NCBI GenBank assembly: GCA_965287045.1
Contig: OZ336884.1
Span: 41,292,001-41,356,000 of the forward strand
Origin: Carcharhinus amblyrhynchos
Taxonomy: Eukaryota
Length of the DNA stretch: 64,000 nt
Direction: 5' to 3'
Shown: positions 881 to 51,392 of the stretch, in pieces
Layout of the letters: every line of letters starts with the position of its first letter
Position numbering within the stretch: the first letter of the stretch is position 1
Made by a program: the position numbers and the translations under genes
Notes under the pieces: model-generated
Databases searched by the model: none
Told to the model about the DNA's origin: nothing
The model's input: only the letters and a program-made list of their open reading frames with translations

Positions 881-2734
881 TTTGCAGCGAAGTATGCGTG
901 TGGAGTGTTCACTACAATCTGGGTTGAGCTTGCAGTCTGCTTAGAATTCTGTCAAGTGCTTTGGCTGGAATGGAAACAATTTCTCCCAGTTCAACTGGTC
1001 TTAGAGCCAGATGACAAACACACAGGGTTTGCCATTTAGCAACAGAGATACAAGTTATGGTTGATGGGTAGAATTATGGGGAGCATTCCATAACGTCAGG
1101 AAAATTATCATTGGAAGGATAATATCTCCTGACAAGCACACTTTAACCCTTAAAAATAACACAAATAACTTTGAAGCCTTGTTTAGTATATACATTTGCT
1201 ATTATTCAATGGCTCAATTCGTCTCCAAGTGCAGTATTGGATCGCAGTGTATACAACCTTACAAAAAAAAGACTATGTAGGTTAATGCCTAGTTACATTA
1301 TTCAATGATGTAATTTAAGATGAATATGTCAAGTATATTTGCAATAATATACAATGTAACTTTTCGGCTTTAGATTTTATACAACATTAAAGCAAATGTT
1401 AATATGTGACTGATAAATTCTATTGGATAACTTTATGCAAAACACACAAAACGTTTCTAACTACCTAATACAGACCTGCAGTGGTTTTAAACTCAAAGAT
1501 CAGATTTGAAACCAGTTTGCTTCAACATCTCCCAAATGTATATCTGTTCACACTTTTTCTTTCCAGCTCAGTTGACTCAAATTGGCTTCCCTGTATTCAC
1601 TGAAAGCAAATCAATATTGTATTTGTAACCATAGTACTTCACTACAATGATTTGAATTATTTTATTTATAATAGACCTAGCTCGCCATGTCTTTATTTTA
1701 AGGTCGCAACAGTATAGCCTCATCACTATACAATAGTATAGTGGTTTGCAGAATTACTTCAACAGTACTTTCTGTACAATTCACAACTGAACAAGGGCCT
1801 AACAAGTACCACTGAAATTTTGCCAGAGGGAAAGTCTGCTTTTTCAATGCTGGAAGAGAATCTTATTAATTATGGCTGCTATAAGGAACTCATCTAAGCA
1901 AAACATTAGCTGGTCACAAAGAGACCTCATATAATGGACATTATATCATTATCAGATAATTGAGCAATATCATTCAGAAGAACATCAATGCCACAAGATT
2001 GTATTGAATCTTGAACCAATCAAGCAATTTCTTTCCGCTCATATTTTCATTTGAGTAGCAATCTCTCTGTTCTTTTGTATTATGTTAAAAACTACTTCCT
2101 CAAAATTCTCCCACCTCAAAATAACAAAGCCTAGAGATGGTTAGGGAGGTGGTGATTGTTTGAAAAATGAAAGTCTGCTAGTTGGATGACCATATTTTTT
2201 CATCAAGTATCCTTCGCACCCTGCAATCTATATGGACAAAATTGCTTTGTCAAACCACTGCCCTATGTAGGCTGTGTTCAATAAAGAGACACTTTACCTG
2301 ATTGATTTAAAAACATAGGAAAAATAATTCTGAATAAGATTTCGTTTTAATTTTTCCTCCATCCTTAAAGTTATAAAGCCAGTGCTCAGAACAGACCAAG
2401 CAAATCCAAATCCACTCCTTGCTTGCTACAGAAACCAAATTCAAATTCCAACTGAATCCAATTCATGGTCCCCACAAATATAAAGATGGACGAAGCAAGA
2501 TGGGCCTCAACTGAAACTTTGGGATGTGTGTCAGATAAAATGTGCAATTGAGAATTAATCCGTTACTCATTGTGCGACATAATATGCATAAAACATAGAT
2601 TAAGATGATGTTGCAGATATAAACCACCGATTGGAAAGTAGCTTATTCATGGTCAAAGAAGATGATGCCAGCAAAAAAAATTGCATCATTTCAGAACCGT
2701 GAATGTTATAGGTGGTCATCTGGGGTGGTCCATC

Positions 2735-6404: not shown

Positions 6405-6985
6405 TGATGTGGAGATGCTGATGTTGGACTGGGGTCTCACAACACCAGGTTAAAGTCCAACAGGTTTATTTGGTAGTAAACACACAAGCTTTCGGGGCTC
6501 TGCCCCTTCGTCAGATGAGTGGAGAGCTCTGATCACAGAGTTCTGATCATATAAAGGCACAGTTTACTGAATACTGATTAGAATGCGAGTCTTTACAGGT
6601 AGTCAGCTAATCAAATCCTAAAGATGCAGACAATGTGAGTGGACTTAGCATTAAGCATAGGTTAAAGAGATGTGTATTGTCCCCAGACAGGACAGTAAGT
6701 AAGATGTAGCAAGCCCAGGAAAGTCATGGGGGTTACAGATGGTGTGACATGAACCCAAGATCCTGGTTGAGACCGTCCTCATGTGTGTGGAACTTGGCTA
6801 TCAGCTTCTGCTCAGTGACTCTGCGCTGTCGTATGTCGTGAAGGCCGTCTTGGAGAACGCTTACCCGAAGATCAGAGGCCGAATGCCCGTGACCGCAGAA
6901 GCGTTCGCCAACAGGAAGGGAACAGTTTCACCTGATGATTGTCGAGCGGTGTTCATTCATCTGTTGTTGTAGCGTCTGCATGGTC
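6405..6985 (-). mobile_element. Penelope-like element 3' end (GIY-YIG endonuclease C-terminus plus terminal repeat region)
   Basis: Minus translation TMQTLQQQMNEHRSTIIR*NCSLPVGERFCGHGHSASDLRVSVLQDGLHDIRQRRVTEQKLIAKFHTHEDGLNQDLGF is typical of PLE GIY-YIG C-termini. Followed by aataaacctgttggactttaacctggtgttgtgag. Confidence 0.85.
6481..6520 (-). ncRNA. Minimal hammerhead ribozyme-like motif in the Penelope-like terminal repeat
   Basis: Minus strand CUGACGA-A-GGGGC-AGA-GCCCC-GAAA-GCUU-GUG: CUGANGA core, 5-bp stem II, GAAA, palindromic AAGCUU. Confidence 0.6.
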
Positions 6986-33904: not shown

Positions 33905-36900
33905 AAAAGAACAAAGAAGAACAGTACGGCACAGGAAGAGGCCCTATGGCCCACCAAGCCTGTGTCAATTACATTGTTCTATCTAGACCAACCACCTGTA
34001 TCCGTCTATTCCCTGTCTGTTCATGTGTCTATCCAGATAAGTCTCAAATGTCGCTGATGTGTCTGCCTCAACCACCTCACTTAGCAGTGCATCCCAGGCC
34101 CCCGCCACTCTGTGTAAAATAACTTCCCCCATATATCGCTACTGCAACTCCACCATCACACCACCACCACCACCACACCACCCCCCCCCCACCTTACCTT
34201 GAACTTGTGCTCCCCCTTGTAATAGCAATTTCTGCCCTGGGAAAAGCTTCCAACTGTTCACCTTATCTGTACCTCTCATAACTTTATAAGCTTCTATCAG
34301 GTCACCTCTAAGCCTTCATTTTTCCAGGCAGAACAATCCTAGTTTATTCAATCTCTCCTCATAGCTAATACCAGGCAACATCCTGGTAATCTTTTCTGTA
34401 CTCCTCTAAAGCCTCCACTTCCTTCTGATAGTGTAGTGACCAGAATTAGACACAGTATTCCAAATGTAGCTAAATAACATTTTATATAACTGTAACACAA
34501 TTAGCCCACTTTTTTTTGTTTTTATTCCAATTCAATCCATTAAGTCCAATTCAGAGTCTCAACAAGTTGAGACATTCCTGATCCAAGCTGACAAGACAGG
34601 ACTCTAACCTCCTGTCTTGGGCTTGATCTACATGATCCAAGATGATTGGAGTAAGCATAGCTCCTCTTCCAAGGCTTGATCTCATTTGCATCTTAGCCAA
34701 AAGGCTGAGATGCTGCTTTAAAAAATTGCTTCAAATGAAGCTGAAATGTAACCTAATGACTTCAATCAAGTACAGCATGTCGATACTACACGATCTTAGC
34801 CAACTCTGGCCGATGAAGGCAAACATGCCATATGCTTTCTTCACCACCTTTTCCATCTGCTGTCACTTTTAAGGATCACTGGATCCATACTCCCAGACCT
34901 CTGTGTGTCTCTGCTCTGATGATTCTGCCATTTATTTCATAACTCCCAGCTGAATTGGATCTTCCAAAGTGCATCACCTCAGTTTTTTCCGAATTAAATT
35001 CCATCTGCCATTTCTCCACCCTATTTTCCAGCCCATCTATATCCTGCTGTATTCTCTGACAATCTTCACCACTTTCCACATTTTCAGCAATCTTGGTATC
35101 ACCCACAAACTTGCTAATCAGACCAGCTATGTTTTTTTCTAGGTATATATATATTACAAACAACAAAGGTCCCAGCACTGACCCCTGTAGAACACCACTA
35201 GTTACAGACCTCCATTCAGAAAAATACCCTTCCACCTCTATCTTCTATGGCCAAGTCAGTTCTGAATCCATCTAGCTAGTTCACCCTTGATCCTGTGTGA
35301 TTTAACCTTTCACACCAGCCTGCCATAAGGGACCTTATCAAATGCTTTACTAAAGTCCTCATAGACAACATCCACAGCCCTTCCTTCAATCATTTTTGTC
35401 ATCTCCTCAAAAACTATCAAATTAGTGAGACATGACCTCCCTCATTCAAACCCATGCTGTCATTAATAAGAATATTCAGTTTCAAACGTGTATAGATCCT
35501 ACCCCAAAGAATTTTCTGTAACAATGTCACTATCACTGATGTCAAACTCACTGGCCTATAATTACCTGAGTTATCCTTGCTACTCTTCTTAAGAAACATT
35601 GGCTAGCCTCCAATCCTTTGGGATCTCACCTATGGCCAACGAGGAAACAAAGATTTCTGTTAGAGGTCCAGCAATTTCCTCTCATCACCGTCAGCAATCT
35701 GGCCCTGGGGATTCGTCCACCTTAACACTTTGTAATACACCTAACACTTCCTCCCTCATAATAATGACTTCGTCTAGAGGGTTTACATTCCCCTCTGAAT
35801 CACCATCAATCTACGTGTCCCTCTTCTTTGGGAATACCGATACAGAGTGCTCATGAAAGATCTCACACACTTCCTTTGGTTCTATGCATAATTTTCCTCC
35901 TTTGTCCCTCAGTAGACCAATTCTTTCTCTGGCTACCCTCTTGTTCATAATATATGTATAACATGCCTTGGGATTCTCCTTAATTCTGCTTGCCAAGGAC
36001 ATTTTATGACTCCTTTTTGCCTCCTAACTCCCTGTTTGAGTTCTTTTCTACTTTCCCTGGATTCTTCAAGTGCTTCATCTGTTTTTAGTTGCCTAGACCT
36101 TATGTACACATCCTTTTTCTTTTTGTCTAGACTCCATGATTCCTGAATCCTGCCTTTCCTGTCCTTGCTTTTCACAGGCACATGCCTGTCCTGCATTCCG
36201 ATCAACTGCTCCTTCAAAGACTCCCAGATGCTAGATGTGGATTTACACTCAAACAGCCTCTCCTAAACAACAGTTTCCAAATCCTAGCTAATCCAGTTGT
36301 AGTTATCCTTCCCCCAGTTTAGCACCTTAATCCTAGGATAACACTTGTTCATTTCCATGAGAGTCCAAAAACTTACGGAATTGCGGTTACTGTTTGCCAC
36401 ATGTTCGCCCACTGCTATTTTGATGACCTCGCTGGGTTCATTCCCTAGTACCAAGTCCAGTATAGTCCCATCTCTAGTCAGACTATCTACATATTGTTCC
36501 AGAAAACCTTCCTGGACATACACCATCCAAGCACCTAGCCCTAAGGGATTTCCAGTCAACATGAGGAAAATTAAAGTCCCCCTCTATAACAAACCTATTA
36601 TTTCTACATCTGTAGAGAATCTGCTTATATATCTGTTCTTCAATTTCCCATGGGCTATTCAGAGGTTTGTAGCACACCTCCATCATAGTGGCTGCTCCGT
36701 TTCTGTTTCTGAGTTCTACTCATTACATGATTCTTCCAAGGAGTCCTCCCTCTGTACAGCTATAATATGTTCACAAACCAGTATTGCAACTCTCCCACCT
36801 CTTTTGCCTTATCTTCTGTCTTGCCGAAAATACCTATATCCTGGAACATTTAGCTGCCAATCCCGTCCCTCTTTTAACCAAGTCTCTGTTACTGTACTCA

Positions 36901-37371: not shown

Positions 37372-37637
37372 TTTTGTTTTAATCCAATTCAATCAAATCA
37401 AGTCCAATACAGAGTCTCAACAAGTTGAGACATTCCTGATCCAAGCTGACACGACAGGGCTCTCACGTCCTATCATGATCTACATGATCTAAGCTGATTG
37501 GAGTAGGCAGAGCTTCTCCTCCAGTGTTTGATCTCATTTGTATCTTAGCCAAAAGGCTAAGATGCCGCTTTTAAAAATTGCTTCAAATGAAGCTAAAACG
37601 TTACCTATTGATTTCAACCAAGCACAGAATGTCAATA
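37372..37637 (-). mobile_element. U2 snRNA-headed SINE-like element, head-truncated copy joined to a CR1 fragment
   Basis: Colinear with 51118-51390: includes internal U2 stem-loop (atcttagccaaaaggctaagatgc on +), gtctcaacaagttgagac hairpin and ttttgtttt tail. Confidence 0.85.
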
Positions 37638-38108
37638 GTATTCCAAATATGGCCTAACCAACTTTTTATATAACTGCAACATCATATGCCAACTTCTATA
37701 GTCTATGCCCTGTCCAGTAAAATCAAGCATGCCATATGCCTTCTTTACCACTTTTTCCACCTGTGTTTCAATCTCTGGACTTGCACACTCAGATCCCTCA
37801 GTGTGTCCATACTTCCAATGGTTCTGCCATTTATTGCATAGCACCCCCCTCACCCCTGCATTAGATTTACCAAAATGCATCACTTAGCATTTATCTGGAT
37901 TAAATTCCATCTGCCACTTCTCCACTCAATTTTCCAGCCTGTATCCTGCTATATTCTCTGACAATGTTCATTACTATCTGCAACTCCAGCAATCTTTGTG
38001 TCATCCACAAACTTACTAATCAGACCAGCTACATTTTCTTCCAAATCATTTATATATATCACAAACAGCAGAGGTCCCAGTACAGAGTCCTGCAGAACAC
38101 CACTAGTC
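37635..38108 (-). mobile_element. CR1 RT fragment
   Basis: QVEKVVKKAYGMLDF..MLQLYKKLVRPYLEY. Confidence 0.85.
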
Positions 38109-51080: not shown

Positions 51081-51392
51081 ATCGCTTCTTGGCTTTTTGG
51101 CTAAAATCAAGTGCAAAATCGACATGTTGCGCTTAGTTGAAGTCATTAGGTTACATTCAGCTTCATTTGAAACAATTTTTAAAAGCGGCATCTCGGCCTT
51201 TTGGCTAAGATGCAAATGAGATCAAGCCTTGGAGGAGATGCTCTGCCTACTCCAATCAGCTTGGATCATGTAGATCAAGCTCAAGACAGGAGGTGAGAGC
51301 CCTGTCTTGTCAGCTTGGATCAGGAATGTCTCAACTTGTTGAGACTCTGAATTGGACTTGATTTGATTGAATTGGAATAAAAACAAAAAAAA
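51081..51392 (+). mobile_element. U2 snRNA-headed SINE-like element, full-length copy
   Basis: Starts ATCGCTTCTTGGCTTTTTGGCTAAAATCAAGTGCAAAATC (34/40 identical to U2 snRNA nt 1-40). Internal perfect U2 nt 7-27 at 51191-51211. Ends GAATAAAAACAAAAAAAA. Two further copies in the window. Confidence 0.85.

Follow-up and report, generated by a model that had tools for sequence, protein, structure and literature searches.

A U2-headed retroposon family of the SINEU type in Carcharhinus amblyrhynchos, with copies at the Keno insertion site of U2

Introduction

What is the element of Carcharhinus amblyrhynchos that begins as a U2 small nuclear RNA (snRNA) and continues, after about 40 nucleotides, as something else? 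The question is raised by a locus on contig OZ336884.1 (assembly GCA_965287045.1), of which we analyzed a stretch of 64,000 nucleotides (positions 41,292,001 to 41,356,000), called the window here. The first-pass annotation had proposed that the part behind U2, the body, is a non-autonomous derivative of the U2-targeting retrotransposons Keno or Utopia sitting in a U2 gene, and that read-through from the U2 promoter gave a U2-body RNA that dispersed through the genome.

Short interspersed elements with snRNA heads have been described in crocodilians as SINEU-1 through SINEU-3, with Tx1-Mar as their partner (Kojima 2015, PMC4494074). That paper found no SINEU outside crocodilians and leaves their transcription open, since an internal promoter is lacking in snRNA genes. 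The restriction to crocodilians is repeated in a 2017 review (PMC5381603, available text). A search of published papers returned no SINEU outside crocodilians; Repbase may hold such a family.

Results

The junction between U2 and the body at about nt 40 proved to be real, with U2 nt 1-40 joined to the body. Using a U2 numbering taken from the genome's own U2 gene, position 51081 corresponds to U2 +1, the similarity to U2 stops at 51120 (nt 40), and GACATG comes next. An Rfam scan of the window returned U2 as the sole match (E value of 0.0011; 36.4 bits, which is less than the gathering score of 46), and a classical RNA polymerase III SINE head (tRNA, 7SL, or 5S, with internal promoter) was accordingly absent. 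The annotation had quoted the same junction letters for both copies that retain a head. The GACATG after U2 holds for both, but the preceding letters GTAGTATC are those of the copy at 34.8 kb only, whereas the focal copy reads GTGCAAAATC followed by GACATG and has 3 changes in nt 34-37. The head of the copy at 34803-34510 (minus strand), besides starting at U2 nt 17, lacks 2 nt.

The element as a whole is built of U2 nt 1-40, a body of ~270 nt, and an A tail, amounting to ~311 nt (Table 1). Within the body of the focal copy, the internal U2 piece (51188-51211) is identical to U2 nt 4-27 at 23 of 24 positions. A clear target-site duplication was not seen by eye around this copy. Three copies in the 64-kb window form a local cluster. 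The second and third of them lie within or beside LINE reverse transcriptase-like repeats that recur in the window (34300-35000 and 37600-37940, minus strand; families D1, D6, and D20).

Table 1. Parts of the focal element and its relatives in the window
Feature	Positions	Strand	Remarks
Full-length copy of the U2-headed SINE (SINEU type)	51081..51392	+	94.5% to family consensus
Head, U2 snRNA nt 1-40	51081..51120	+	stops at the insertion site of Keno, nt 38-40
Fold-back arm	51124..51144	+	predicted to pair with the head at U2 nt 19-39
Spacer	51145..51187	+	common to the older U1/U4-headed family
Second, internal U2 piece (U2 nt 4-27)	51188..51211	+	start of the ancestral remodelled-U2 core
Hairpin module 1	51219..51267	+	duplicate of module 2
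Hairpin module 2	51272..51321	+	homolog of the third family's single module
Terminal hairpin	51328..51345	+	matching stretch of the older families aligns with U2 nt ~68-87
AATAAA, then A-rich tail	51376..51392	+	
Second window copy	34510..34803	-	head from U2 nt 17; junction GTAGTATC followed by GACATG
Third window copy	37372..37636	-	5'-truncated near the junction, headless

To assess the size of the family, we searched the 2.92-Gb assembly. A first look yielded 2,881 candidates, and the 40 that were scored, the query itself apart, were 91-94% identical to the query. The exact 20-nt SINE tail occurred 879 times genome-wide, as compared with 0 for the control, and was present in 3 of 19 incidentally collected copies, from which we estimate ~5,600 copies with a wide margin; the family is thus likely to comprise several thousand copies. 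A family of ~100,000 copies, as suggested by 119,259 rough U2 candidates, was rejected on the basis of these counts. Five loci (L162, L231, L248, L258, and L359) hold young SINE copies of a subfamily whose tail ends differently (AATAAAGT...) and which lies outside the exact tail count.

The 132 distinct copies analyzed diverged from their consensus by 4.8% on average (minimum, 2.1%), and the family no longer looks active in the sampled copies. Their flanks are unrelated, so that the family is interspersed, multicopy, noncoding, shorter than 500 bp, and provided with a 3' poly(A). The 5' end fell at U2 nt 1-10 in 86 of the 132 copies, and U2 sequence was present upstream of the SINE in only 2 of 145. 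Among 117 copies spanning the junction of head and body, 109 had no indel in nt 33-48. Because this junction is common to them, the family is a master-driven retroposon and not a set of independent chimeras. Target-site duplications of at least 8 nt were detected in 20 of 60 copies that were not selected by their flanks, as compared with 2.7% of shuffled pairs; the other 40 had none of that length, and no clear base preference was apparent 3' of the A tail in these 60 copies. Of the 24 sequencing runs listed (11 studies, with 8 organism labels and a fish metagenome), 20 contained all or part of the stretch, and no RNA run containing it was among those listed.

Immediately behind the head, the consensus contains an arm complementary to it. 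Consensus nt 44-58 are predicted to pair with nt 25-39 in an unbroken run of 15 pairs (9 Watson-Crick and 6 G-U), a run reached in 1 of 5,000 shuffles, and the predicted pairing extends to nt 11-71. The fold z-score was -4.9 for the whole consensus and -1.6 for one single copy. Relative to an exact antisense, the arm differs by transitions only (4 A-to-G and 2 C-to-T), and one of its positions is still A/G variable among copies. The U2 stretch that it covers is the branch-point-binding region. The join of head and arm could represent a single template switch to U2 RNA, in which case U2 fragments of similar length are to be expected.

We then compared the body with LINEs and with other SINEs of the same genome. 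Its comparison with an intact Keno gave chance words only (best non-U2 E value of 0.059), and in none of 64 Tx1 5' regions (of 87 ORF1 matches) was the body joined into the LINE, beside which it stood only as separate A-tailed SINEs. The autonomous U2-targeting element with shared untranslated region (UTR) sequence, for which the first-pass annotation had recommended a search, was therefore not encountered in this set.

Relatives were found instead among older SINEs. The 3' ~230 nt of the body are 77% identical to an older U1-headed family (1,988 candidates, with 30 copies diverging by 11.1% from their consensus; loci L259:704-1090 and L269-L298). This family carries U1 nt 3-96 and U4 nt 17-47 (0 of 2000 shuffles each), and in its 3' part the alignment with U2 spans nt 39 to about nt 102 (0 of 2000 shuffles). 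A third family (1,635 candidates, with 25 copies diverging by 8.8%) is U2 itself, collinear over nt 5-143, with a single hairpin module inserted after nt ~31 (between ~31 and ~44). This family (L299-L323) has its own tail and resembles the description of SINEU-3, and a 3' fragment of it is present in the window (2351-2477, minus strand; 86% to consensus). In the young family, the module is duplicated (0 of 2000 shuffles). The young family therefore consists of a new U2 head, the arm, the spacer, and the remodelled-U2 core with its module duplicated.

Compared directly with U2, the 3' end of the young family gave no significant match (134 of 2000 shuffles), and neither did young nt 41-110 with U4 or U1; the homology of this 3' end to U2 is, to judge from the alignments, transitive through the older families. 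On the same grounds, we place the body as a descendant of the older U1/U4-headed and remodelled-U2 SINEs of the same genome. The order of the three families, whose samples are biased toward their queries, is suggested by structure and divergence.

The U2 genes are arranged as an array of 10.5-kb units and as arrays of 407-bp units, and several of them are interrupted by an A-tailed element with two ORFs, of which L061 is an intact representative. ORF1 (419 amino acids) is open and contains ZCCHC3-type RNA-binding domains and a zinc knuckle, whereas ORF2, an open frame of 1190 codons, contains an APE endonuclease, a reverse transcriptase, and a zinc finger. By its site and anatomy, this is a Keno-type element. 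Its A tail adjoins U2 nt 39, which provides a measurement in this genome of the insertion just under nt 40 that the first-pass annotation had taken from general knowledge, and its 5' side consists of U2 1-57 in the full-length insertion and of U2 1-50 or 1-40 in truncated copies. In a sample of 37 junctions between an A run and U2 nt 39, 33 showed the Keno tail and 2 the SINE tail, while one of the others was situated just behind a Keno tail and one was U2 with an A run only. A Utopia-like tail was seen at 0 of these 37 junctions, in a census that requires an A tail and sees A-tailed elements only. At one locus (L328, C5), an A run separates a U2 5' piece from the part of U2 that starts at nt 39, and no element intervenes.

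Keno sequence is also abundant elsewhere. A 21-mer of its tail had 985 exact occurrences, and U2 nt 39 onward followed the tail in 0 of the first 30 loci. Since most Keno-like copies stand outside U2, the specificity appears relaxed. Dispersed Keno 5' ends bore U2 heads, often doubled, at 8 of 14 off-array loci and at 15 of the 29 additional loci that had a UTR match; at 4 dispersed loci, U1-derived sequence takes the place of the U2 head. The autonomous element therefore shows the same head behavior as the SINE. A U1-derived 5' end characterizes a Keno-like subfamily at L231, L240, L245, and L258. The arrays on C98 and C334 (L042-L050 and L059-L062) consist of 407-bp units with a variant U2 (88% to the gene on C45) and are heavily loaded with near-identical Keno copies having open frames, suggesting current activity. 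In the U2 array on C45 (L051 and L053), LINE-like frames are located in the 10.5-kb unit and are identical across several units.

SINE and Keno are frequently neighbors when the analysis starts from Keno: in 6 of 30 loci, a SINE started within ~125 nt downstream of the Keno tail (P < 1e-13 even at 26,000 copies). Starting from the SINE, Keno sequence was present within 1.5 kb at only 3 of 59 loci. The two also have non-U2 landing sites in common, and the joint targets seen here are U2 and LINE 5' regions. Two of the joint sites, T1 and T2, closely precede a LINE ORF1-like frame, which we take to resemble CR1 ORF1. At several loci (L095, L166, L181, L182, L019/L188, L178, and L162), SINE and Keno-like landings are 20-40 nt upstream of a GGTRAG motif, presumably splice-donor-like, and at two of these sites the CR1-like ORF1 follows. 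A common repeat of ~260 nt is a recurrent Keno-like landing site (L156, L161, L164, and L232; window 6748-6983). No tail sequence is common to SINE and Keno. Keno is likely to be the mobilizing LINE, an assignment made from two features only, namely, insertion site and co-location.

A targeted search, which gives no frequency, retrieved seven distinct copies in which the SINE is followed by 74-153 nt of U2 (L063, L064, L066, L067, L083, L139, and L149). U2 resumes at nt 39 in six of them and at about nt 42-46 in the seventh; the U2 behind one copy is a variant, and in two cases the sequence continues for 39 nt into the 3' flank of the gene. No U2 promoter sequence was present upstream of these seven copies. 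The motif TCTGTTC directly followed the exact tail in 7 of 879 cases, as compared with ~0.3 expected (34 of 36 candidates examined), and a U2 junction was visible in only ~1% of the exact-tail copies. Copies of the body followed by the rest of U2, which the first-pass annotation had proposed to look for, thus exist in the genome, and to these seven is added one in a U2 gene unit (L359/L363). On the 5' side of L359/L363, the 215-nt spacer of the 407-bp U2 array is present over its whole length (82%) and is followed by U2 1-37; a complete SINE with its own head and tail comes next, then U2 39-45, and then a truncated Keno. This copy is decayed, with the SINE 91% identical to the consensus and the spacer at 82%. 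In L069, U2 12-50 precedes a complete SINE with its own head and tail, after which U2 39-48 follows.

In six copies (L135, L137, L146, L151, L154, and L192), the 3' end consists of a U2 stretch of 6-10 nt with a second A tail behind it. Of these, L137, L146, and L192 are 5'-truncated and have no U2 upstream. The most plausible interpretation of the six is that they derive from an RNA leaving a U2-embedded element and cleaved shortly after AATAAA, because a read-through RNA cleaved just 3' of this signal would yield headless copies of this kind. An intact young master was not found; the exact pattern of promoter edge, head, and body gave 1 match, which had no promoter homology. All 3 of the SINE-free U2 retrocopies examined extend over 32-60 nt of 3' flank, so that the long U2-trailing copies may be insertions into U2 pseudogenes. 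In six copies, leaving out L066, in which U2 is a variant, non-CpG divergence was 6.2% for the U2 parts and 4.4% for the SINE parts (P = 0.085).

Discussion

By its structure, and by comparison with the description of the crocodilian elements, we class the family as SINEU-type. It has a U1/U2-derived head, it is a short, A-tailed, interspersed family derived from a master, and it shares the target preference of a Keno-group element. The reading that we favor, with a probability of roughly 0.7, is that of a SINEU-type retroposon in which a U2 nt 1-40 head sits on an older snRNA body, inserted by Keno at U2 nt 38/39, transcribed from the U2 promoter, and mobilized by Keno. It builds on the fixed junction, the Keno site, the copies in or before U2, the co-location with Keno, and the ancestry of the body, and the events may have taken the following order. 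A Keno-type Tx1 element would have placed an older snRNA-derived body at nt 38/39 of a U2 gene; U2-embedded copies would have been transcribed from U2 +1 by the upstream promoter of the gene; the transcript would have been polyadenylated at the AATAAA of the element; and the RNA would have been copied around the genome by the Keno reverse transcriptase, that is, by trans-mobilization through Keno ORF2. The family likely borrowed the U2 promoter and the Keno enzymes because some copies occupy or trail U2 genes at the insertion base of Keno. Read-through from the U2 promoter at this site, the other half of the first-pass proposal, is thereby favored by genomic traces, namely, the Keno site, the U2-trailing copies, L359/L363, and the co-location with Keno.

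The origin of the body as first proposed fared differently. An internally deleted or otherwise non-autonomous derivative of Keno or Utopia in a U2 gene would explain a junction at the site common to both LINEs, and an older Keno subfamily starts with U2 1-35 and then GATCAAAGCC, ~10 nt of which are like the start of the SINE module and are in part a U2 repeat. However, neither the intact Keno nor the 64 Tx1 5' regions provided a UTR or ORF match, the tails differ and no Utopia-like tail was present at the 37 sites, and two older snRNA-derived SINE families, themselves collinear with U2, align with the body. A minority of copies showed insertion before U2 nt 39, but 5' or 3' sequence in common with Keno was not seen. 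We consider this origin largely refuted and very unlikely. Even harder to credit is that independent U2-body chimeric retrocopies, with no master behind them, make up the family. A longer head in one copy (L012, U2 1-45) and the variable length of Keno heads point in that direction, but the constancy of the junction in 109 of 117 copies, together with an arm complementary to the head that is fixed in the consensus, refutes it for the sampled copies.

It is improbable, in our view, that the head was gained once by a template switch to U2 RNA, that the masters used unrelated flanking promoters (e.g., LINE 5' regions), and that the copies trailed by U2 arose later, as Keno-style insertions in U2 genes and pseudogenes with no role in transcription. 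Template switching and flanking promoters are what the available text of Kojima 2015 (PMC4494074) proposes for crocodilian SINEU. In the shark genome, U2 retrocopies are available as targets, the landing sites T1 and T2 are just upstream of a LINE ORF1-like frame, and no intact U2-embedded master was found. Such a scenario nevertheless fails to account for headless copies in which U2 39-48 and a second A tail form the 3' end. Moreover, the 5' ends pile up at U2 +1 with no common upstream extension in the flanks inspected, and the junction would have to agree with the Keno site by chance.

As far as described in the available text of PMC4494074, crocodilian SINEU resemble the present family in being short, noncoding, and A-tailed, in having U1 and U2 heads added in turn to a common 3' body, and in showing partial duplications, with one member being a remodelled U2. 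Their tail, too, is common to no LINE, their partner is a Keno-group Tx1 with a joint target preference, and some partner families bear U1 or U2 heads (PMC4494074). The differences concern the target, which is Mariner-N4_AMi in crocodilians and U2 together with LINE 5' regions here, and copies in a U2 gene, which the same text does not report for crocodilians and which are found here at U2 nt 38/39 (PMC4494074). Further features that set the shark elements apart are the U4 piece of the older family and the arm predicted to fold back over the head.

With the U2-specific Keno of the Tx1 clade, which according to the accessible descriptions has an APE endonuclease and a reverse transcriptase and inserts before U2 nt 39, the SINE shares the site but not UTR or ORF sequence, and the Keno-like copies of this genome differ in standing mostly outside U2. 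For Utopia, a non-LTR element with a restriction-like endonuclease (RLE), the available part of PMC4640811 gives a downstream U2 that starts at nt 39, with an identical 3' flank for Keno, and a relaxed specificity in crocodilians; by contrast, there was no sign of Utopia at the 37 A-tailed U2 junctions studied here.

A further parallel is R2, which has short non-autonomous derivatives in rDNA that derive from the LINE itself. As we propose for the SINE, R2 and its derivatives have no promoter of their own and depend on read-through from the targeted host gene. R2 cuts off the host RNA, whereas the SINE keeps it as a head and has an snRNA-derived body. Co-transcription of R2 with the host gene is cited in the available text of PMC4494074.

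The shark family places SINEU-type elements outside crocodilians. As a tentative extension, which we hold to be somewhat less probable than its negation, the three families may form one lineage of SINEs made almost entirely of spliceosomal RNAs (U2, then U1 plus U4, then U2 again) that breeds in U2 genes at the Keno site on the U2 promoter, with the antisense arm of the youngest family, over the branch-point-binding end, possibly sparing splicing. If true, this three-generation lineage would answer how SINEU are transcribed. For this question of transcription, the genome offers a testable route through copies in U2 gene units at the Keno site, copies carrying downstream U2, and an intact partner that itself has U2-headed dispersed copies. 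The SINE would be a case of noncoding cargo that a target-specific retrotransposon brings to a defined place in the genome.
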